A model generated the notes under the pieces. The model saw nothing but the letters and a program-made list of their open reading frames with translations. It was not told the origin of the DNA and made no database searches. DNA of 33,382 nt from a virus: the IMG/VR virus record IMGVR_UViG_3300045988_125345, positions 1-33,382 of that record, one strand, 5' to 3'. The position numbers were made by a program, and so were the translations under genes. Every line of letters begins with the position of its first letter. Within the stretch, counting starts at the first letter, position 1. This document shows positions 19,499 through 33,382 of the stretch, piece after piece.

Positions 19499-19524
19499 CG
19501 CGCGCGCACGCGCGCCTCACGCGC

Positions 19525-19553
19525 TTTATATAGATAAAGGACACAACAACAAC
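19525..19553 (-). promoter_or_regulatory. Candidate leftward promoter for the primase/structural operon (TTGTTG-N16-TATAAA)
   Basis: The minus strand reads ttgttgtgtcctttatctatataaag. The -35 hexamer lies inside the (TTG)n tract. This is the only sigma70-like match I see upstream of 19290. Confidence 0.25.
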
Positions 19554-19561
19554 AACAACAA
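19544..19561. repeat. (CAA)6 trinucleotide microsatellite
   Basis: caacaacaacaacaacaa, read directly from the sequence. Confidence 0.95.
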
Positions 19562-19666
19562 CCCTTATATACCTACACCTACACACTACACTTATTGGGC
19601 TTTGAGAGGGGTCAGCCTCATGCGCACGCGTGATACACCTCGACACGCCAAAAGTCAAGGACTTGC

Positions 19667-19788
19667 TGTGACTATTGGCCCTCGAATTTATCGAAATCGA
19701 CTGTGATTTTCGTCACATTTTCACATAGCTCGCAACTCATTCACAGTTCCATCACAGAATCTATTGCCCCTAACTTGAGTTGTCCACA
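19667..19788. promoter_or_regulatory. Cluster of DnaA-box-like TCACA/TGTGA motifs including one perfect TTGTCCACA; candidate replication origin
   Basis: This is a locally AT-rich stretch. TGTGA occurs at 19667 and 19702. TCACA occurs at 19713, 19721, 19741 and 19752. TTGTCCACA lies at 19780-19788. Confidence 0.4.
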
Positions 19789-20391
19789 GGCTCAGCGTTG
19801 GAAATCCGCCAAAACCAAGACGCCCTCGCATGACTTGGCCGCGCTACTCGAATAGCAACGGCCTGACCGCCGACCAACATGGTCGCCGATTCCTCGAAAC
19901 CGTTGGAACGACGCCATTCCCAGATGGTCGTGGCGCGGGCTGGCCGAATCTTCACAATTGCCCGTTGACCGCAGATTTTCGGCGTCGCACGGCCTTCGCT
20001 GTGTCACGCATGGACTGCGACACAGCCATGGCCGCATGCGGAGCAATTTCCTGACGTCGGGAAAATGGTCGCGCGGGCCTTCTGGAGACGGCCGCATCCA
20101 CCATGGCCGCAACTGCCGGAGGCGTGGAATCGAATAAAGGCGTCTCTGAGGGCCTTTTAGCGCTGGCATGTAAAAGTATTAGGGTTCGGCGTGAAAGCCC
20201 GTCTAAGGCCCCAAAGAATCGCTCTCAGATGGCACCATTGCCCATTCGCCCTCGTCGGCGCAATTGGCAAGGCGTGCGGTGAGGCTCCGGCGTGTCCTTT
20301 TTCCGGCACCCCCCCCTGCGTCGGGGTGTCTCTCCCTGTCTGTTATTGGGAATCGTTCTCGTTTTGTCGACGTGTCGGCGGCGTCCATGGG

Positions 20392-20612
20392 TTAACCGCG
20401 TTAACGTCTCAATCGGGTTAACGTATCAACCAAGTTCATGCGTTAACCAAGTTCATGCATTAACCGTGTTGATGTGTTAACCGTGTTGATGTGTTAACCG
20501 TGTTCATCTGTTAACCGTGTTCATGCATTAACCGTGTTCATCTGTCAACCACGTTCATGCATTAACCATGTTCATGCGTTAACTGGGTTCACTCCTTAAC
20601 CGGGTTCACGTC
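20392..20612. repeat. Iteron array: 11 tandem 17-bp units in exact register (20426-20612) plus 3 degenerate TTAAC half-units upstream
   Basis: Units start at 20426, 20443, 20460 ... 20596. The consensus is TTAACCGTGTTCATGCR. Two adjacent units are identical (ttaaccgtgttgatgtg). Confidence 0.9.
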
Positions 20613-20625
20613 GACGTCGCGTTAT

Positions 20626-20640
20626 TGAGAACAGTTCTCA
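20626..20640. promoter_or_regulatory. Perfect 15-bp palindrome TGAGAACAGTTCTCA abutting promoter P1 (operator candidate)
   Basis: 7-1-7 dyad located 12 bp upstream of the P1 -35 hexamer. Confidence 0.5.
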
Positions 20641-20681
20641 CGACACGCCGACTTGACTCACGGCACCAAATGCGGTATATT
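20641..20681 (+). promoter_or_regulatory. Early promoter P1 (CGACACGCC element, TTGACT-N17-TATATT)
   Basis: cgacacgccgacTTGACTcacggcaccaaatgcggTATATT, followed by the AAGGAGG RBS and ATG 20708. Confidence 0.65.
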
Positions 20682-20707
20682 AAAACCATCAACCAAGGAG
20701 GTACGAA

Positions 20708-20890
20708 ATGCACAAGGCACTTAATGGCAAGGGATATATCAAGGACGGAGAAGGGGTGTTCGTCACCACGTCGGGCGAGGTGTACGCCTACCGCGACGGG
20801 GAGCTGACGCCATCCACCGCAACCGAAGACCCGAAGGCGTACGTCGAACTGGCGCGCGGCATGTTCGCCCGAACGACACGCCGCACTTGA
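20708..20890 (+). CDS. Early hypothetical protein (60 aa)
   Basis: AAGGAGG lies 7 nt upstream. This is the first gene after P1. Confidence 0.6.
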   Translation: MHKALNGKGYIKDGEGVFVTTSGEVYAYRDGELTPSTATEDPKAYVELARGMFARTTRRT

Positions 20891-20915
20891 CATCCAACGC
20901 CAAGTCAGGTATATT
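20874..20915 (+). promoter_or_regulatory. Early promoter P2 (CGACACGCC element, TTGACA-N17-TATATT)
   Basis: cgacacgccgcacTTGACAtccaacgccaagtcaggTATATT. The stop codon of the preceding gene lies inside the -35 hexamer. Confidence 0.65.
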
Positions 20916-20943
20916 AAAAGCATCAACCAAAGGAGTGATTAAA

Positions 20944-21315
20944 ATGGGTGACTATCTTGGACAGTTCGAACTTCAGGCGCTGTACGACTCGCGCCAGTCG
21001 TTCTATGGCAAGGCGTTCGTGGAACGCTGGGACACGGAGCACGGCACGCAGTACGTGCTCAGGTCATACGGCACGGTGGTGGCGAAGGTCACGCCGACGT
21101 ACGCCGATGGCGAGTCCGAAACGTACGACGTCGAGGTGGGCATGCGGTATCTGAGCGCCACCACGTTGCGCCACGTCAAGGAGTTCCTTGCACAGACGGA
21201 CGTCGTATTCAAGGGCATCACGCTGGCGTGGTTGCGCAAGGCCATCAAGGACGGCCGTCCTATCGCGGGCGTCGAGTCCTCGTATAGCAAGACGTATACC
21301 GTCAAGGCAATGTGA
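20944..21315 (+). CDS. Early hypothetical protein (123 aa)
   Basis: ATG 20944 follows AAAGGAG. The motifs YDSRQSFYGKA...LRSYGTVVA...LSATTLRHVKEF look like a conserved phage/plasmid family that I cannot name with confidence. Confidence 0.65.
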   Translation: MGDYLGQFELQALYDSRQSFYGKAFVERWDTEHGTQYVLRSYGTVVAKVTPTYADGESETYDVEVGMRYLSATTLRHVKEFLAQTDVVFKGITLAWLRKAIKDGRPIAGVESSYSKTYTVKAM

Positions 21316-21659: not shown

Positions 21660-21698
21660 TAGACAACATAAGCCATCTGTTATTAAGAAGTGGTTGAA

Positions 21699-23309
21699 AT
21701 GGCTGACAGAATTGCAATCCTAGGCGGGGAGCCGTATGGCGAGTGGATTAAGCGCGACAGCCAAGCGCAAAGGCTGTACCGCGAGTATTGCGCCAAGTGG
21801 CCGGACGGTAACGCCGAGTGCTTCGTGGCCGGAGAGGACTTCTACGTCCGCCTCAACAACGGGAAAATGCGTTACGTCGACAGCGCCGACGACTTCGATG
21901 ATGAGGCCGCGTGGTGCGCGCAGTGTGGCGTGCCGGTTGACGTCGACAGTGGCGACTACTGCATCTGCGACGCCGATGATTGCGACGCGGTTCCCTGCAA
22001 GTACTGCGGGGGCGACATGCTGGGAGACTACTATTGCCCGCGTCACCGTGGATACGACGTGCTGAAGTACGTCAAGGAGCCGGAATACGTCTACCCCTAC
22101 GCGTTCGGGGACGGTGACCAATTCACGTTCGGCGTCGAGATTGAAATTGAGTCCGAACTGTCCGAAGAGTTTGCCGAAGGCGTCAAGGAATCCGACTTGG
22201 TTGCCGGCTGGGACAGTGACCAGTCACTCGACGCGGGCGGCATTGAGTTGCAGAGCAACATCCTTGACATGTCCAAACTGTCCGCGTTGCGTGAGTTGGT
22301 TGAGGACATCCCGGAATGCGGGGAGAACGCGGGCGGCCACATCCACGTTGCCCGCACGCCAAACCAGTGCGCTAGCCGCTGGTACTGGGCGCTACGCGGA
22401 CTGGATATCGCGCAATGCCAGCGCCTCAACATGCGCCACATGGGTGATGATTATTGGTGCACCCTCACCCATGGCGACTACACGGGCAAGCACGTGGCCG
22501 TCAACGACGAACACGCGGACACTATCGAACTTCGTACGTTCGACTGCTGGTATGCGGGTACCGCGGGCAAACTCGTCCCGGCCGTCAAGTGGATTCGTGC
22601 CATGTGGCGCTTCTTCGAGAAGTACCCCCGCGGCACCATTGAGGCCGCCGCCATCGAACAGTACTCTTCGTGCGTGGCCGACAACGTGACCGACACGCCC
22701 CGCCGCACGCTCGAAGAACGGCTTGCGGACGCCCACCGCGCCGCCGCCGCACGCAAGGCGGAGGAGGAGTGCGAGCGCGAGCGCCGCGCCGACGAAAACC
22801 GCCGCCGCGTCGAGAAGAACGTGAGGGAGTCGCGCCGCGCGCGTAAGAGCCATGGCGACTCAACCGCGGCCATCATTGCATGGCGCGAGCACGGGAAACG
22901 CCGCGAGCGCGGCCGCGAGCGCGTCGAGGAAAACCTCGCCAGCGGCTACTGCGTCTACGCGTTCCCGTCCCGCAATCTCAAGCCGTTGCACATCTACTTG
23001 CGCATGGTTGACGCGAGACTCGAACGCGGCGGCACGTTCCGCAGTCTGAGCAACTTCTTCATCTACCACCCATACGACGGGGCGACGGTGTGGGACGGTT
23101 ACGCATACTTGTACAGACCTGAAGGCGATACCGTCGCGCGGGTGGTCAACAATATCATCCGCAGCCGTATCGCACGCGCGTCCCACGGCACGCCGACGAG
23201 GGAATCACTGGAGCGCACAGCGTTGCGCATCTACAAGCACATCGGACGTCCCGAATTGAACGAACGCTACGCGCAGATTCGCAAGAATCTCGCGCGCGGC
23301 AACAACTGA
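21699..23309 (+). CDS. Amidoligase_2-type (glutamine-synthetase-like COOH-NH2 ligase) multidomain protein
   Basis: The motifs FTFGVEIEIESE ... SLDAGGIELQSNIL ... ENAGGHIHVA are present. There is a Cys-rich N-terminal region (CAQCG..CICD..CKYCG..CPRH), a very charged R/E helix (aa ~345-400) and an extra C-terminal domain. The start is ATG 21699 or GTG 21690. Confidence 0.7.
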   Translation: MADRIAILGGEPYGEWIKRDSQAQRLYREYCAKWPDGNAECFVAGEDFYVRLNNGKMRYVDSADDFDDEAAWCAQCGVPVDVDSGDYCICDADDCDAVPCKYCGGDMLGDYYCPRHRGYDVLKYVKEPEYVYPYAFGDGDQFTFGVEIEIESELSEEFAEGVKESDLVAGWDSDQSLDAGGIELQSNILDMSKLSALRELVEDIPECGENAGGHIHVARTPNQCASRWYWALRGLDIAQCQRLNMRHMGDDYWCTLTHGDYTGKHVAVNDEHADTIELRTFDCWYAGTAGKLVPAVKWIRAMWRFFEKYPRGTIEAAAIEQYSSCVADNVTDTPRRTLEERLADAHRAAAARKAEEECERERRADENRRRVEKNVRESRRARKSHGDSTAAIIAWREHGKRRERGRERVEENLASGYCVYAFPSRNLKPLHIYLRMVDARLERGGTFRSLSNFFIYHPYDGATVWDGYAYLYRPEGDTVARVVNNIIRSRIARASHGTPTRESLERTALRIYKHIGRPELNERYAQIRKNLARGNN

Positions 23310-23315
23310 GACTAT

Positions 23316-23338
23316 CGGGGGCGGGAACGTCCCGCCCC
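23316..23338 (+). terminator. 10-bp all-GC hairpin between the amidoligase and amidotransferase genes (attenuator or processing-site candidate)
   Basis: gggggcggga-acg-tcccgccccc, followed by accgttt. There is no long U tract. Confidence 0.4.
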
Positions 23339-23364
23339 CACCGTTTAGAAAAGAGGTAAAAACA

Positions 23365-23865
23365 ATGTGTGTAATCGTTACGGCCGTGCCCGGCTCCATG
23401 CCTGAGCCTGAGGACATCCTAGCCATGAGTGACGCGAACCCGGACGGGGGCGGCGTGAGCTGGTGGGATGGGGAGCGCCTGAGGGTGTTCAAGAACGTTG
23501 ACACCCTGAAGGTGGTGGGCTTCATCTACAGCCATTGGGATAGTCTCAAGCGCGCCCCGTGTCTCATTCATTTCCGTCTCGCCACGCATGGCGCGGTGTC
23601 GCCTGAGAACTGCCACCCGTTCCACACTGAGCGCGGCTATATCGCACACAACGGTATCGCCCACGACTTCGAGGACGGCCCGTATGAGTGCGACACTAAG
23701 AACATGGTGCGCGCGTGGATTGACAGCGGATACGATAACGACACGTTCGCCGGTCAGGGTCTCGTGGCCCTCATCACCCCGCACGGTTGCCTTAAGTGGC
23801 TGGAGGGCAAGCCGATTGAATACGGGCAAGGTGTATGGGTCTCCAATATGTTTTGGGATATCTGA
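23365..23865 (+). CDS. Class II (Ntn) glutamine amidotransferase-like thiol enzyme
   Basis: The protein begins Met-Cys (MCVIV), and carries HFRLATHGAVSPENCHPF and IAHNGIA motifs. It is 166 aa long and has an AGAGG RBS. Confidence 0.7.
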   Translation: MCVIVTAVPGSMPEPEDILAMSDANPDGGGVSWWDGERLRVFKNVDTLKVVGFIYSHWDSLKRAPCLIHFRLATHGAVSPENCHPFHTERGYIAHNGIAHDFEDGPYECDTKNMVRAWIDSGYDNDTFAGQGLVALITPHGCLKWLEGKPIEYGQGVWVSNMFWDI

Positions 23866-23936: not shown

Positions 23937-24317
23937 ATGAAACCTTCCGAATATTTCCGCGATAATGTCGCGAGATATCTCACAGTCCTATCCGATAGGG
24001 CGCTCGAAGCCGGAACCGACGTCGTGCGCACCATAATCGCGCTCGACACGGCAACGCCATACACGGCCAAGGACTATCAGAACGCGCTCGCCGCATGGCT
24101 GCAAGGACGGCACGACGTGTGGCAGAGTCGCATAGACGACTACAAGTCGAACCCGACTGGGAAAGCCCTCGCGACGATAGCGGACTACGCAATCCACGAA
24201 CACACCCCCCACACCCAGCGTGAGTACGATGACATCGTGGAACGCGCCTACCGCATGGCCGTGGATGAAACGCTAATCGAAAACGAACTCGAAAAAAGGA
24301 GGAACAATGGAAAGTGA
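23937..24317 (+). CDS. Hypothetical helical protein (126 aa)
   Basis: ATG 23937 follows AGGTGG; the alternative is ATG 23925. Confidence 0.6.
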   Translation: MKPSEYFRDNVARYLTVLSDRALEAGTDVVRTIIALDTATPYTAKDYQNALAAWLQGRHDVWQSRIDDYKSNPTGKALATIADYAIHEHTPHTQREYDDIVERAYRMAVDETLIENELEKRRNNGK

Positions 24318-24780
24318 GAAACGATACGACGTGCTGACGCGCATAGCAGCCGTGCAGCAGTCGGTTGAGGCGGTGAAACGCACCACCGAAGGCTACGGCT
24401 ACAAGTACGCCACGCTCAACGACGTATGGCAGCTGGTCAAGAAGACCATGGAGGAGCACAGCCTAGGCTGGACGGCCGTCTGCTCAAGCGAGATAGTCGG
24501 CGCGGACACCGACATGCCAACCGTGTACAACACGCTCACCGTGGCCGTCTACGAGGCCCCGCACGAGTATGAAAGCCTCCCGGACATGGTGAAGCATGGT
24601 GAGGCTTTGAGCAGCAGCTACACGTATCCGGCGGCGGCCGCACAGCAGGTGGGAAGCTTCGAAACCTACTACCGGCGCTATGGTCTCCTCCATCTGCTTG
24701 GCCTGACCACAATCGCGGACGATGACGGCAAAACCGCCACATCCCTCCCCCGTCCCTCTCTCACTGAAGAATTCAACTGA
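24307..24780 (+). CDS. ERF-family-like single-strand annealing protein
   Basis: RBS AAGGAGG. YKYATLNDVWQLVKKTMEEHSL and QVGSFETYYRRYGLLHLLGLTTIADDDG match the ERF signature as I recall it (G-S-x-x-T-Y-x-R-R-Y ... DDDG). Confidence 0.55.
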   Translation: MESEKRYDVLTRIAAVQQSVEAVKRTTEGYGYKYATLNDVWQLVKKTMEEHSLGWTAVCSSEIVGADTDMPTVYNTLTVAVYEAPHEYESLPDMVKHGEALSSSYTYPAAAAQQVGSFETYYRRYGLLHLLGLTTIADDDGKTATSLPRPSLTEEFN

Positions 24781-25832: not shown

Positions 25833-26199
25833 GCAAAAGCCGGAGCCGTTGGAGCCGGCCACACAGAACCGTCTCATCAGACTCTTGGAGCAGCAGAACT
25901 GGTACGTGCAGAAAACCGAAGGACGCTCGCGCAACGGCTTCCCCGACGTGACCGCAGTAGACCCGCTAGGCAACGTGTGGTTCATCGAACTGAAACGCAC
26001 AGTCGGAAAGCCCAGCCCGGACCAGTGCCGCGAACTCAAGGCGCTCGCCGAACATAACGCGAACGTCATGCTCCTATACGGCAAGAAGGCCGTGGACACC
26101 GTACTGCTCTACAAGAACTTGGTTGACATGACGAACGTCTACCATGAAATCCTAGTCGTCGATTCGGAAGGGAAGATGAAATGGACGAGAGAAATCTGA
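25816..26199 (+). CDS. VRR-NUC domain nuclease
   Basis: NGFPDVTAVDPLGNVWFIELKRTVGKPSPDQ is the PD...E-x-K motif of VRR-NUC. Confidence 0.75.
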   Translation: MTRLNKQKPEPLEPATQNRLIRLLEQQNWYVQKTEGRSRNGFPDVTAVDPLGNVWFIELKRTVGKPSPDQCRELKALAEHNANVMLLYGKKAVDTVLLYKNLVDMTNVYHEILVVDSEGKMKWTREI

Positions 26200-27092
26200 C
26201 ATACAAGGTCTTCCAAGACCGCGACACATGGCTCAAGGCCCGCGAGGAGACGATAGGCGCGTCAAGCCTCGCGCATTTCATCGCCACCGGACAGCTGCCG
26301 TCCCCCCCGCCGGACGTTCCGGCAGTGCAGTCGGCGTTGCAGTTCGGCAGCATCTGGGAGCCCATGCTCGTCAAACTGTACGCCGAACACCTAGAGCTCT
26401 CCATCGCCAGCAAGAACACTCCAGTCAGCCAGTTGGAGAACGGGCAGCTCGCATGGTACGACAACAGCTTCTACACGGACGGACGTCTGCACGTCTCACT
26501 GGACGCCGCATACCGCGATTTTGGCGGCATCGTCCACACCGTCGAGGCGAAGACGGGAAGCAAGCCGTCCTACACGTTCCTCGCCACGGAACAGCGCAGC
26601 CAGTATTCCGCCCAAGCGCAGATAGAGGCCCGCATGATGGACACGGAGTATGCGGAGATAATCTACGCGCAACGCCCCCCGTCGTGGGAGACGATGAGTT
26701 CGGAATACATCACCGAACGAATCAAGGAGACACTGGACATCGTGGTCGTCCCGGACGTGATGGACATTGGCAAGCTGGAAAAGTATGCGACCGAATACGA
26801 GCGCGCCATGCGGCCGGACGAGGCAGACAACGACGGACAGCACCTGCTGGCCGACCTGTTGGAGGCGAAAGACCGGTATGAGGCGCTGAAGGAACAGCTC
26901 TCCACATGGCTGGAAGAACACCCCGGCGAGCGCGTCGCATGCGCCGGACACGTCGCGCGGCTGGCCGAGACCACGCGCACCACCACCGACTACAAGGCGT
27001 ATTTCGCCAAGCACCCCGCCGACCTGACCCCGTTCAAGAAGACATCGACGACCACCCGGCTCAGCGTGGTGAAGGAGAAGAAGAATGCATGA
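26181..27092 (+). CDS. PD-(D/E)XK recombination exonuclease (YqaJ / lambda Exo-like)
   Basis: 303 aa. The motifs GASSLAHFIA ... SLDAAYRDFGGIVHTVEAKTG (D...E-x-K) are present. It lies in the recombination module with the annealase and SSB. Confidence 0.65.
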   Translation: MDERNLTYKVFQDRDTWLKAREETIGASSLAHFIATGQLPSPPPDVPAVQSALQFGSIWEPMLVKLYAEHLELSIASKNTPVSQLENGQLAWYDNSFYTDGRLHVSLDAAYRDFGGIVHTVEAKTGSKPSYTFLATEQRSQYSAQAQIEARMMDTEYAEIIYAQRPPSWETMSSEYITERIKETLDIVVVPDVMDIGKLEKYATEYERAMRPDEADNDGQHLLADLLEAKDRYEALKEQLSTWLEEHPGERVACAGHVARLAETTRTTTDYKAYFAKHPADLTPFKKTSTTTRLSVVKEKKNA

Positions 27093-31016: not shown

Positions 31017-31943
31017 TCAGCGGCACATTGTCAAATACCATTCACTGCCGGAATCGGTGCCGATTGCGACATACCTCGGCTCACCTGAAGAGGCGCCGAT
31101 ATAACGGCCCCACAGGAAACCATCGGCATAGGTGCCCCAACCGTCCAGCACGACCCGCTGGCCGCGAGTGTAGTCGGCGACAATCTTGCCCTTCAGCGAC
31201 GGCTCGGTACGCACGTTCAACGAATCGACGGCGACCTCATACGAGGTGGCGACCACAGTCGGAGCCGGGGAGACCACCACGGCTGGAGCCGGATTTACCG
31301 GAGTGTTCGCGCCCACACAGGCGTACTTGTCCCAAGCGGCCTTGTCGCCAGCGAAATAATCCAAGTCAAGCGAACCGGCATAGCCGTCGATATGGCCGTT
31401 CGAAGTGTACTGGCGCATCGGATATGCAACATACGACCAAATCGAGTTGGCGTCCTGCCAGCCGACCGCATCCATGGAAGCGTAGCACGCCTCCCAGATG
31501 CCGCAGTCATGCTTGCCGCAGATGTCCTTGATGAACGGGATTTCGGAACGCTGGGCGTACACGAGCGGCTTCACGCCGGTCAGACGGATGTACTGGTAGA
31601 GGAATTCGTCAAGATAGGAGCGGTCGCCCCAAGCGGCGTTATCGGCCTGCTCCCAGTCAACGCACGGCACGAACTTCTTCAGATAGCCTTCGGTGCTCTT
31701 GGCGAAGAAATACGCCTCCTCCGAAGCGTTCACGCCGCGAATGTAGTGCATGTATCCGACGGCCAACCCGCGAGCGGCCGCGGCCTGAATCTTCGCGTCA
31801 GCGCCAGTCCACACGGATTCGACGATGCCGTTGTCGGTCGTCAGCTCGCCAGCGCCCCAAGTACACTGCACCACGACGCCATCGGCGTCAATCTTGGAAA
31901 CGTCGCAATCGGCCTTCCAATTGCTGATGTCCACAAACCTCAT
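31017..31943 (-). CDS. Endolysin: GH25 muramidase with a C-terminal SH3-like cell-wall-binding domain
   Basis: The sequence runs MRFVDISNWKAD...VVQCTWGAG...YMHYIRGVN...DLDYFAGD (GH25), then a proline/valine linker, then SLNVRTEPSLKGKIVADYTRGQRVVLDGW (SH3-like). Confidence 0.85.
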   Translation of the reverse strand: MRFVDISNWKADCDVSKIDADGVVVQCTWGAGELTTDNGIVESVWTGADAKIQAAAARGLAVGYMHYIRGVNASEEAYFFAKSTEGYLKKFVPCVDWEQADNAAWGDRSYLDEFLYQYIRLTGVKPLVYAQRSEIPFIKDICGKHDCGIWEACYASMDAVGWQDANSIWSYVAYPMRQYTSNGHIDGYAGSLDLDYFAGDKAAWDKYACVGANTPVNPAPAVVVSPAPTVVATSYEVAVDSLNVRTEPSLKGKIVADYTRGQRVVLDGWGTYADGFLWGRYIGASSGEPRYVAIGTDSGSEWYLTMCR

Positions 31944-32224
31944 TATTCAGAAACCTCCGTTTCATTGCTTGCGATATGCTTGCCGGTCACCTTCGCCTTG
32001 TCGGACATTACAAACGAGGCCGGACTGATTGAATCGGTCTTGCCGCTCGACGCCACGCACGTCAACACGCTGGCGATAGCTGCGACCAAGGCGATGCCGC
32101 ACACGTTCGTCCAATCCACGTCGAACAGGCCGACGCCGCCGACCACTCCGGCAGACAATGCGGCCTGACATGCGGTGCGGATTGCACGCTCCAACGTGTC
32201 AACCCAAAAATCCTTAGTGAACAA
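31943..32224 (-). CDS. Holin (r1t/LL-H-like)
   Basis: 93 aa. It reads KDFWVDTLERAIRTACQAALSAGVVGG followed by a second TM helix, and lies immediately upstream of the lysin. Confidence 0.65.
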   Translation of the reverse strand: MFTKDFWVDTLERAIRTACQAALSAGVVGGVGLFDVDWTNVCGIALVAAIASVLTCVASSGKTDSISPASFVMSDKAKVTGKHIASNETEVSE

Positions 32225-32597
32225 TATTCTGCTCCTTAGTATTGTCGTTTTCCAACGGTTCTATTATACTCCTAAGCCCGTCGGGAAGTCTTGGCTTCGG
32301 ATACCGTTTCAGAAACTCCGGGTCGAGAACATTGCAGAGTTCCCCCAGCCAATGTCCCATCGCCCGAATGTAGGAGGTTTTCAAATCGTCCTGATAGCGG
32401 AGTTCGTCGCGCTCGCGGATGAACGCGGCAAGCTTCTCGTCCTGCCGGTCGATTTCCTGTTGCATGTTCAATTGGGCTTCAGAGAGTCGCCGATAGGCTT
32501 CGCTCAAATCGCCGCGTCTGTTCTGCGCCCAAGTGACCGCCGCGACCACAATGGCGCAGAGTCCGGTCACTAGGGCAACGATGATGTCAGTGCTCAT
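32214..32597 (-). CDS. Membrane-anchored coiled-coil protein (lysis accessory or other; function unknown)
   Basis: 127 aa. An N-terminal TM helix (IIVALVTGLCAIVVAAVTWA) is followed by a charged helix. It lies between the invertible segment and the holin. Confidence 0.55.
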   Translation of the reverse strand: MSTDIIVALVTGLCAIVVAAVTWAQNRRGDLSEAYRRLSEAQLNMQQEIDRQDEKLAAFIRERDELRYQDDLKTSYIRAMGHWLGELCNVLDPEFLKRYPKPRLPDGLRSIIEPLENDNTKEQNIVH

Positions 32598-32608
32598 GTG
32601 ACACCATT

Positions 32609-32650
32609 CTAGCTGATAATTGCGATTATGTCAGAAAAGACGGCAAGTGG
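32609..32650 (+). repeat. Inverted repeat IR-L (perfect core 32615-32650) containing a dif-like 28-mer (32609-32636)
   Basis: CTAGCTGATAA-TTGCGA-TTATGTCAGAA followed by aagacggcaagtgg. It is the reverse complement of 33328-33363. Confidence 0.9.
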
Positions 32651-32971
32651 CGTGGATGGAACATGCCGTGGCGTGACATTCACCTCGGTACGAACAAGGT
32701 GCATATGTGGGCTTCTGGCGGTACAGGAAACATCGACCTGCTGACCGCGAACATCAATCTGACCGGCTGGGGTTCGAAGGCGGTTGTTGGACAGGTGAAT
32801 AACACCGCATTCTATCCGGCAAACTCCGAAGGCGTCTATGCACCAACGAGAGACAGCTATTTTCCGACCATTGCAGGCGTTGCAGACAACGGCAACGTGT
32901 ACATCGAATATGCTGGTGGCGCTTCAGGGTCTCGCATCGTTTCCCCCATTTTCACCTACAATATCGGCTAG
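32612..32971 (+). CDS. Silent alternative C-terminal cassette of the receptor-binding protein, in inverted orientation and lacking the N-terminal constant region
   Basis: The frame reads ADNCDYVRKDGKW (encoded by IR-L) and then RGWNMPWRDIHLGTNKVHMWASGG...SPIFTYNIG*. The track lists only 32663..32971, from an internal Met with no good RBS. Confidence 0.6.
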   Translation, partial: ADNCDYVRKDGKWRGWNMPWRDIHLGTNKVHMWASGGTGNIDLLTANINLTGWGSKAVVGQVNNTAFYPANSEGVYAPTRDSYFPTIAGVADNGNVYIEYAGGASGSRIVSPIFTYNIG

Positions 32972-32985
32972 GCCCTTCAATCGGA

Positions 32986-33382
32986 CTACGCCAGCTGGTA
33001 GGAGAAACTGCCGGAAAGCCATTCCCCTTTACGGAATGGATGGGCTGCGTACGGTCGCACGGCGACCGAATCGTTGATGATTTGCAGCAATACATTGGGA
33101 GTGTCGGACGGAAAGTGAAGGTCGATGTTTTTCGCTTTCAGACGGTCTGGAAGATTCATGACACGACTTGTATCCCAAGGCTTGCAATTAAGCCAATCAC
33201 CGGCACGGTTCATCCAATAGAACCCGCTCGCAATTCCATTATGGACGTTGCCGCGAATCTGCACGATATCCCAGCCGGCATTGTTCTTGTTGGTAAGGTC
33301 GTTCTCCGTGAAGAGTCCTTCGAACTTCCACTTGCCGTCTTTTCTGACATAATCGCAATTATCGGCCACATCATGCAACAGC
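32986..33382 (-). CDS. Receptor-binding protein, currently expressed C-terminal cassette (continuation of the gene starting at 603/564)
   Basis: ...LHDVADNCDYVRKDGKW | KFEGLFTENDLTNKNNAGWDIVQIRGNVHNG...GSFSYQLA*. It is in frame across the circular junction. Confidence 0.7.
   Translation of the reverse strand, partial: LLHDVADNCDYVRKDGKWKFEGLFTENDLTNKNNAGWDIVQIRGNVHNGIASGFYWMNRAGDWLNCKPWDTSRVMNLPDRLKAKNIDLHFPSDTPNVLLQIINDSVAVRPYAAHPFRKGEWLSGSFSYQLA
33328..33369 (-). repeat. Inverted repeat IR-R (perfect core 33328-33363) containing a dif-like 28-mer (33342-33369, read on the minus strand)
   Basis: The minus strand reads GTGGCCGATAA-TTGCGA-TTATGTCAGAA followed by aagacggcaagtgg. The identical sequence occurs at 1-42. 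Confidence 0.9.

Follow-up and report, generated by a model that had tools for sequence, protein, structure and literature searches.

The invertible segments of Mu (G/Gin), P1 (C/Cin) and p15B (Min) share one design, in which repeats within a tail-fibre or receptor-binding protein (RBP) gene bracket alternative C-termini that are fused in frame to a constant N-terminus. The same design is present in the virus record IMGVR_UViG_3300045988_125345 of IMG/VR, of which we analysed positions 1 to 33,382 (33,382 nt, hereafter the window). Our results suggest that this locus is an inversion switch for the RBP heads of a lytic Bifidobacterium siphophage, in which the phage probably provides two inverted dif-type sites and the host provides the enzyme, XerC/XerD.

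The locus differs in machinery from the three classical segments. Mu, P1 and p15B carry their own serine invertase beside the segment and recombine at gix or cix sites, with the help of a Fis-dependent enhancer. In contrast, no invertase gene was detected in the window, and its sites have the 11-6-11 architecture of dif. The Rin shufflon of Bifidobacterium prophages integrated at dnaJ2 (PMC6109161) is nearer in several respects: it belongs to the same host genus, it combines the constant region of an RBP with TP901-1-like heads, and tyrosine-recombinase chemistry would be expected in both. However, Rin is a phage-encoded tyrosine invertase located beside its cassettes and acts at the 11-bp rix site TTCCCTAACCC, whereas the window has neither a rin homologue nor rix, and its relatives are lytic phages without an integrase.

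Inversion by host Xer proteins is itself already known. On Acinetobacter plasmids, pairs of XerC/XerD sites (pXerC/D, or pdif) in opposite orientation undergo reversible inversions, and active pairs share their 6-bp spacer (Giacone et al. 2023, PMC9947245; Cameranesi et al. 2018, PMC5790767). The agreement of centres within these pairs parallels that within the phage site pairs described below. Yet pdif sites belong to plasmids of Gram-negatives, where they flank resistance or accessory modules and do not lie within genes, so that they produce no in-frame fusions and have no role in host range. Integrative mobile elements exploiting Xer (IMEX), such as CTXphi, VGJphi, TLCphi and some gokushoviruses, are alike in that a recombinase-less virus with a dif-like site exploits XerC/XerD of its host. 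These elements have one site, integrate at chromosomal dif and are filamentous, microvirus-like or double-jelly-roll phages. The window, in contrast, represents a tailed lytic phage with two inverted sites and a centre unlike host dif, for which the outcome would be an intramolecular inversion. In the searchable literature we found no description of a tailed phage that exchanges its receptor heads in frame by an Xer-type, recombinase-less switch, and the names of the isolates introduced below led to no such paper either. The receptor switches known in phages, which comprise Gin, Cin, Min, Rin and the diversity-generating retroelements, all bring their own enzyme, to our knowledge. What would be new is the use of host-Xer inversion as a recombinase-less receptor switch in lytic tailed phages.

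The cassette and its dif-type sites

The elements of the cassette are as follows.

32612-32650 and 33328-33366: inverted repeat of 39 nt, 97% identity
32615-32650, plus strand: left arm of the perfect 36-nt core of this repeat, a dif-like core plus 14 inner bases AAGACGGCAAGTGG encoding KDGKW
33328-33363, minus strand: right arm, 36 bp perfect
32609-32636, plus strand: left dif-like site, a 28-mer, CTAGCTGATAA (32609-32619)-TTGCGA (32620-32625)-TTATGTCAGAA (32626-32636)
33342-33369, minus strand: right dif-like site, a 28-mer, GTGGCCGATAA-TTGCGA-TTATGTCAGAA, duplicated at 15-42 by the circular overlap
56-633 and on into 33328-33382 (= 1-55), minus strand: constant N-terminal part of the RBP gene, ATG at 633; residues 1-210 end ..DNCDYVRKDGKW
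32986-33327, minus strand: head A, expressed in the orientation of the window, KFEGLF...SYQLA, 113 codons plus stop
32651-32971, plus strand: head B, silent cassette, RGWNMPW...TYNIG, 106 codons plus stop at 32969-32971, with no constant region of its own
32972-32985: 14-bp spacer between the two convergent stops
33328-33382 (= 1-55): terminal overlap of the contig

An earlier note on this DNA had described a perfect 36-bp inverted repeat around 677 bp, two tail-to-tail cassettes 14 bp apart, a minus-strand RBP gene that reads through the right repeat into a 113-codon head, and an unrelated 106-codon head fused in frame to the left repeat on the plus strand. The cassette proved to be real in each of these details. 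The open reading frame (ORF) of the RBP runs on the minus strand from ATG 633 across the contig junction to the stop at 32986, and reads ...HDVADNCDYVRKDGKW followed by head A. The plus-strand frame through the left repeat reads ..ADNCDYVRKDGKW followed by head B; it has no start codon before ATG 32663 and none upstream of the repeat. Both cassettes are in frame with the inverted repeat, which brackets them as C-terminal alternatives to one constant N-terminus.

Positions 1-55 of the window are exactly those of 33328-33382, which indicates that the window is a complete circular contig, with a unique circle of 33,327 bp and 59% G+C. The possibility that this circle is a repeat artefact was dropped, as the identical 33,382-nt contig also exists in an assembly with a different cut point, where the region is continuous.

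Each repeat contains a 28-mer with dif architecture, in line with the earlier note. Both sites are of the 11-6-11 type with an ATAA-N6-TTAT core (..GATAA-TTGCGA-TTATGTCAGAA), and their centres are identical, TTGCGA. At the left site the XerC-type arm points outward and the XerD-type arm toward the invertible segment, while the right site is part of the RBP gene, where it codes for ..VADNCDYVR. The earlier note had further likened the sites to actinobacterial dif, and this likeness holds against both published and genomic sites. For B. adolescentis, B. longum and B. animalis, the published prediction for dif reads [G/T]CCGATAA-TGTACG-TTATGTCAGAT (Kono et al. 2011 supplement, PMC3025954). Compared with the predicted Bifidobacterium dif GCCGATAA-TGTACG-TTATGTCAGAT, in which 19 arm positions are specified, the right site matches at 18/19 and the left site at 17/19 of these positions. 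The match includes CAGA, which separates Bifidobacterium from the Frankia/Mycobacterium type TTATGTCAAGT. The centre, in contrast, differs from the host centre TGTACG at five of six positions. The host of the window phage was deduced here from its relatives.

When the window was scanned for GCCGATAA-N6-TTATGTCAGAT with at most 3 mismatches, only the two cassette sites matched (1 and 2 mismatches), against 0/100 dinucleotide-preserving shuffles. A scan of genomes for CCGATAA-N6-TTATGTCAGA, with one genome per species, matched at least 120 loci, almost all in Actinomycetota and each in single copy. The Bifidobacterium matches listed, from at least nine genomes, had the centre TGTACG throughout, except for TGCACG in B. 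minimum; CCGATAA-TGTACG-TTATGTCAGAT was found as a single copy in B. simiiventris, B. samirii, B. thermophilum, B. commune, B. vespertilionis, B. margollesii, B. aquikefiri and others. The phage centre TTGCGA occurred in none of the matches listed (at least 120). Judged by their sequence, the two phage sites would qualify in every respect as an Xer/dif core site.

Both orientations among relatives

The closest records are lytic Bifidobacterium phages from sewage, plaque-forming isolates with ~81-85% DNA identity to the window (GenBank OP172641-2 and OP172700-5). BA720P3 and BA746P1, with host B. adolescentis, encode a 316-aa RBP in which the constant region continues directly into head B, and they have no second cassette. 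Their fusion lies at the predicted junction, ..GCDYVRKGNKW-RGWNMPW... By comparison, BP742P1 and five BP677 phages, with host B. pseudocatenulatum, express a further head, C (..NCDYVRTPSGKW-AKTRDT..CREWRA), and hold head B as a silent inverted cassette. Across the eight isolates, the expressed head thus follows the host, B. adolescentis with head B and B. pseudocatenulatum with head C.

When the constant region was used as the query, 66 IMG/VR loci were found, and the comparison covered ~70 related phage loci overall. All 66 IMG/VR loci have the site at the same position within the RBP gene. Where heads A and B form the pair, a second site lies ~754 nt downstream on the opposite strand. Head A is the expressed one in the window and in L012, L013, L016, L018 and L019, and head B in L009, L011, L014, L026 and L291. 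The flanks of these A/B loci are 88-94% identical to those of the window (93% in L291, where head A is silent). The 705-bp segment is 80-85% identical to that of the window, in some loci directly and in others only once it has been inverted in silico; in the opposite alignment the identity is ~55%. The B/C pair also occurs both ways: L033, L048-L050 and the BP isolates express head C, and ten other loci express head B. The earlier note had predicted that inversion would exchange the heads, and this is what the relatives display: the same segment in both orientations between collinear flanks.

The silent heads have been preserved. They are full length in 25 loci and include all three head types. 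Their ratio of nonsynonymous to synonymous substitution rates (dN/dS) is 0.29-0.41, at synonymous divergences (dS) of 0.18-0.66, versus 0.28-0.42 for expressed heads; for head B, silent copies have a dN/dS of 0.32 and expressed copies 0.28. In silent cassettes of type A, the region near the 5' end lacks a start codon. Purifying selection on a silent cassette without a start implies that it is regularly expressed.

Structural models point in the same direction as the isolates. In the AlphaFold (AF2) model of the window RBP, the predicted local distance difference test score (pLDDT) exceeds 90 for residues 200-323, while the N-terminal half is poorly modelled. The site-encoded DNCDYVRK and the adjoining KWKFEGLF form a beta-hairpin that leads into a beta-sandwich. 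The top PDB folds for head A are the lactococcal RBP heads of bIL170 and TP901-1, with target TM-scores of 0.64-0.67 and modest E-values. Head B was modelled via the 97%-identical relative P0197 (AF2 pLDDT of the head ~90-95), and its top PDB folds are the RBP heads of p2, TP901-1, bIL170 and Listeria phage PSA. The plus-strand cassette is an RBP head, as the earlier note supposed: it is the sole head of BA720P3 and BA746P1, and its predicted fold is of the p2/TP901-1 type. Taken with the head-host pattern of the eight isolates, these fold matches support a role of the heads in receptor choice, and the heads may set host range.

Contig break points offer an indirect view of the sequenced populations themselves. 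Logan contigs (k=31) of the same strain break inside the 36-bp repeat, which is uninformative because the repeat exceeds k-1. At k=55, a population with both orientations around a perfect 36-bp repeat should give branch vertices in the assembly graph, namely 55-mers in which the repeat is extended by 19 nt, either into the outer flank or into the segment. The terminal overlap of the window consists of the 36 nt of the right repeat and 19 nt of flank, and is exactly a flank-type de Bruijn vertex for k=55. The identical contig is present in at least two other ENA assemblies. In ERZ28580402 scaffold_136 (SAMEA7519365; 33,382 nt; reverse strand) it starts at 32669, which corresponds to the 36 nt of the left repeat and 19 nt of the segment, the complementary vertex. 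ERZ1311588 NODE_39, again the identical genome, is cut elsewhere and reads through the region. Hence, two of the three known cut points of this genome (window, L279 and L282) are vertices of an inversion bubble. In addition, the related contigs L010, L015, L031 and L060 end at the site or at most 86 nt away. This reasoning from assembler behaviour and break points hints that both orientations coexist in the sequenced population.

Conservation and decay of the sites

The DNA site itself, beyond the peptide it encodes, is under selection. The right site is written in rare codons (GAT 0.19, AAT 0.17, TAT 0.32 and AGA 0.06), with a joint probability of 2e-5 given the peptide. Among loci that have a full second cassette, 23/25 retain an intact GATAA in the XerC arm, versus 13/37 loci without one (Fisher p = 6e-6, kinship ignored). 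The commonest replacement of GATAA changes N to G or D, which suggests that the asparagine is dispensable for the protein. The sites within one genome are also more alike than sites between genomes (permutation p = 0.002, kinship ignored). In BP742P1 and BP677P1-P8, identity between the two repeat copies is confined to the 25 nt of GCCGATAA-TTGCGA-TTATGTCAGAA and stops at both borders of the dif-like core.

Several relatives appear to have lost the switch. In BA720P3 (L001, 6290-6410 and 6660-6790), the XerC arm of the in-gene site is broken (GACGG; GCCGACGG..), and on the lysis side a decayed site, CCCGATGG-TTGAGA-TTATGCTGGAA, is followed by the first 14 nt of head C. By their sequence, the single-head B. 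adolescentis phages look like locked descendants, or fossils of the switch. A decayed outer site recurs ~100 nt past the RBP stop in L030, L034, L035, L036, L040, L051, L052 and L059. Its centre in these eight loci is TTGAGA, which gives an in-frame TGA, and its XerC arm is often GATGG. The in-gene partner of this TTGAGA-type outer site likewise reads GATGG in several lineages; once a switch is dead, its two sites seem to decay together.

In L061, L062 and L072, the outer half-site GCCGATAA-TTGCGA-TTA is kept ~85 nt downstream of the RBP stop and is followed by unrelated sequence, which suggests that a deletion of the silent cassette ended 3 nt into the XerD arm. These remnants (GCCGATAATTGCGATTA|ACGAGC..) were considered as a possible mark of Xer cleavage. 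This reading was rejected, since cleavage would be expected at the border between arm and centre, from which the break is displaced by 3 nt into the XerD arm.

A second phage family carries the same arms. It was found by scanning viral contigs for dif arms with any centre, which also recovered the family of the window with its centre TTGCGA, and comprises 20-32-kb contigs (L195-L272) with 53-54% G+C, whose DNA similarity to the isolates is a single 137-nt match. Its RBP junction reads ..ADNAHYVRNDGAW (also ..DNAHYVRNDGAW) and is encoded by CCGATAA-TGCCCA-TTATGTCAGAA. The arms are unchanged, while the centres are TGCCCA, TGTCCA, TGCTCA or TGCCCC. In six of eight loci the centres match within the pair: TGCCCC in L229, TGTCCA in L269, TGCTCA in L203, and TGCCCA in L208, L272 and L242. 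In the remaining two loci the centres disagree and the pairs look decayed. Constant arms with a centre that need agree only between partners are typical of the core sites of tyrosine recombinases. The segment includes a lysis-associated membrane-protein gene in several loci of this family, and in L229 this gene points against its neighbours, a footprint of inversion. Some loci have up to three sites, as is the case in L269. Example loci of the second family are:

L229: 8255-9704
L269: 6502-8091
L259: 3053-4600
L208: 1506-2332

As a separate observation, some viral-classed contigs (L198, L207, L235 and L249) hold what appears to be a genuine Bifidobacterium chromosomal dif, CCGATAA-TGTACG-TTATGTCAGAT-TAG, and others (L199, L209, L211, L216, L223, L258 and L261) hold TTTTAG-CCGATAA-TGTAGA-TTATGTCAGAT. 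Contigs with such chromosomal-type sites may be IMEX-like elements integrated at dif, or misclassified host DNA.

The enzyme, its alternatives and what the switch would mean

The earlier note recognised no recombinase gene in this phage, and our searches of the complete 33.3-kb circle agree. Genes were called by codon-position G+C, which gave 49, and 48 of these (the 1,333-aa tape-measure protein was left out) were compared with Pfam, also at relaxed thresholds. Neither Pfam for these 48 genes nor PHROGs gave any integrase, resolvase, large serine or tyrosine recombinase, transposase, DDE or HUH domain, and the 10 longest alternative ORFs, mostly antisense, had no Pfam domain. The sole recombinase-type match at relaxed thresholds, Phage_int_SAM_5 on a 142-aa protein (20887-21315; E = 0.21, 12 bits, 28 residues), was rejected as noise. 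The non-coding gaps are too small to leave room for a recombinase gene; the longest, 19510-20707, carries 17-bp iteron-like repeats. The rix site had no match in the window at up to 1 mismatch, and gix/cix were not searched for. PDB sequence searches with the RBP, the 539-aa protein and a 288-aa protein gave no usable match.

What Pfam did recognise was a Prim-Pol/DUF5906 replicase, an SNF2 helicase, an ERF annealase, a YqaJ/RecE-like exonuclease, VRR-NUC, dCTP deaminase, MazG, GATase, terminase, tail tube, Dit, holin and lysin; PHROGs added only the RecE-like exonuclease. The RBP gene is the last of the tail module, preceded by the tape-measure protein, Dit (PF22768), a 399-aa tail protein and a 250-aa protein with an endosialidase-chaperone domain. 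Outside the left site lie the lysis genes, listed here together with the two recombination genes:

32214-32597, minus strand: gene for a 127-aa membrane protein, starting 14 bp outside the left site
31943-32224: r1t-type holin, beyond the membrane-protein gene
31017-31943: GH25 endolysin, beyond the holin
24307-24780: ERF annealase
26181-27092: RecE/YqaJ-like exonuclease

Two further repeat arrays were observed. Ten tandem 17-bp units (GTTCATGCGTTAACCGT) occupy 20434-20608, in the 1.2-kb gap between the divergent replication and early blocks, and by their sequence look like replication-origin iterons or operator repeats. Two 46-nt direct repeats, 20651-20696 and 20885-20930, are 78% identical, resemble promoters (TTGAC..N..TATATT) and lie just upstream of the plus-strand early genes.

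XerC/XerD of the host is most likely the catalyst of the inversion. The arms of the phage sites would copy those of Bifidobacterium dif, with ..GCCGATAA as the XerC arm and TTATGTCAGA as the XerD arm. With XerC and XerD bound to each of them, the two sites would be brought into synapsis, and strand exchange within TTGCGA would invert ~0.73 kb. The constant region (residues 1-210) would then be re-fused to head B (RGWNMPW..), and head A would turn silent. The re-fusion would be in frame because the centre lies inside codons (AA|T TGC GA|T). The private centre TTGCGA, as opposed to the chromosomal TGTACG, should block recombination with chromosomal dif. Xer might be activated on phage DNA in an FtsK-dependent or FtsK-independent manner, or XerC alone might form a Holliday junction that is resolved by replication or a nuclease. 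E. coli XerC alone can form Holliday junctions, which replication or nucleases resolve. One may speculate that the phage VRR-NUC acts as such a resolver.

With less assurance, we lean towards a wider view, in which at least two lytic Bifidobacterium phage families run host-range switches, some of them multi-cassette shufflons, wholly on host XerC/XerD. They would keep the arms of host dif, and the private centre would serve as an 'address' by which the phage's sites find each other and stay apart from chromosomal dif. The reaction would perhaps be FtsK-free or make use of a phage-encoded Xer activator.

Several points weigh against a host-Xer switch. E. coli XerCD at dif normally needs FtsK at the septum. 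The phage has its own ERF annealase and RecE/YqaJ-like exonuclease, and A/B-type genomes show concerted evolution 14 nt beyond the 28-mer, which indicates that homologous recombination or gene conversion between the repeats also takes place or could play a part. Conservation of the site is partly at the protein level, because it encodes DNCDYVR, modelled as a beta-strand, and the association statistics given above ignore shared ancestry. Several genes have no annotation, among them the 539-aa gene (21690-23309). As for the orientation, the inverted isomer of the window is predicted to have the junction ..GTGGCCGATAATTGCGATTATGTCAGAAAAGACGGCAAGTGG|CGTGGATGG and its reciprocal, and this junction (constant flank, repeat and start of head B) had no exact match in viral or metagenome contigs. 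Other assemblies of the identical genome, found via exact look-ups of neighbouring proteins, all have the same orientation. All six B. pseudocatenulatum isolates are also in one orientation; this fits selection on the propagating host, and rare switching would fit equally well.

One alternative explanation might be that the segment is inverted by homologous recombination or single-strand annealing, through RecA or the phage ERF and RecE-like exonuclease, and that the dif likeness is incidental to a conserved coding junction. The phage does encode the necessary proteins, VRR-NUC nuclease included, and the repeat of the window (36-39 bp) exceeds the 28-mer. Moreover, rare variants in the 14 inner bases are common to both copies of a genome (L019, L026), which indicates gene conversion beyond the Xer core. 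Homologous recombination therefore probably contributes gene conversion between the repeats. As the agent of the switch it seems unlikely, however. The copies of the BP isolates share just 25 bp, exactly the dif-like core, which is very short for homologous recombination. This process is also indifferent to sequence, yet 18/19 arm positions are those of host dif, a match never seen in shuffled sequence, and the arms are kept in the second family despite another centre and another peptide. Furthermore, the rare codons are kept, and it is specifically the XerC arm that decays after loss of the partner cassette.

Alternatively, a different site-specific recombinase might act, either an unrecognised phage protein such as the 539-aa protein or another tyrosine recombinase of the host in trans. 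Several phage genes lack any annotation, and Bifidobacterium genomes carry extra tyrosine recombinases. The 539-aa cysteine-rich protein has 397 homologues, all within this phage family (~400 contigs), and no Pfam, PHROGs or PDB match; all 397 are unannotated and hence give no functional clue. Its gene adjoins one for a class-II glutamine-amidotransferase-like protein (PF13230; window 21690-23865). There is also a precedent, as a trans-acting invertase was proposed for an inverted locus of a bifidoprophage that has no flanking recombinase (Mavrich et al. 2018, PMC6109161). Still, we regard such an enzyme as quite improbable: relaxed thresholds produced no recombinase domain beyond the noise match to Phage_int_SAM_5, the rix site of Rin is absent from the window, and the 11-6-11 architecture with arms of host dif argues for XerC/XerD rather than another enzyme.

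That there is no active switch, with the second cassette and the repeats as remnants of earlier exchanges of modules at a conserved junction, or with independent expression of the plus-strand ORF (ATG 32663, 102 aa), agrees with the single orientation of this genome's assemblies and of the six B. pseudocatenulatum isolates, with the annotation of the 102-aa ORF as a coding sequence in GenBank and with the many relatives that have decayed sites or truncated cassettes, but is very improbable given silent heads that are intact in 25 loci at the dN/dS of expressed ones, A-type cassettes that are startless near their 5' end, the same cassette pairs in both orientations across multiple lineages, and contigs that break at the predicted branch vertices.

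If host XerC/XerD indeed operates this switch, it would be the first case of a programmed inversion inside a gene that depends on Xer, and tailed phages would have their first recombinase-less receptor switch. A 33-kb phage with two 28-bp sites would hand its host-range variation to an essential, universal host enzyme, which is hard to lose. The exploitation of Xer, known from integration (IMEX) and from the remodelling of plasmids (pdif), would come to include the in-frame switching of proteins, and the system would provide a natural test of how the identity of the centre isolates ectopic Xer sites from chromosomal dif. These phages are abundant in human gut metagenomes, with hundreds of 32-34-kb contigs, and their hosts are B. 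adolescentis and B. pseudocatenulatum. Two heads per genome would bear on metagenomic host prediction, on the dynamics between phages and Bifidobacterium, and on the design of phages with a switchable or locked host range.

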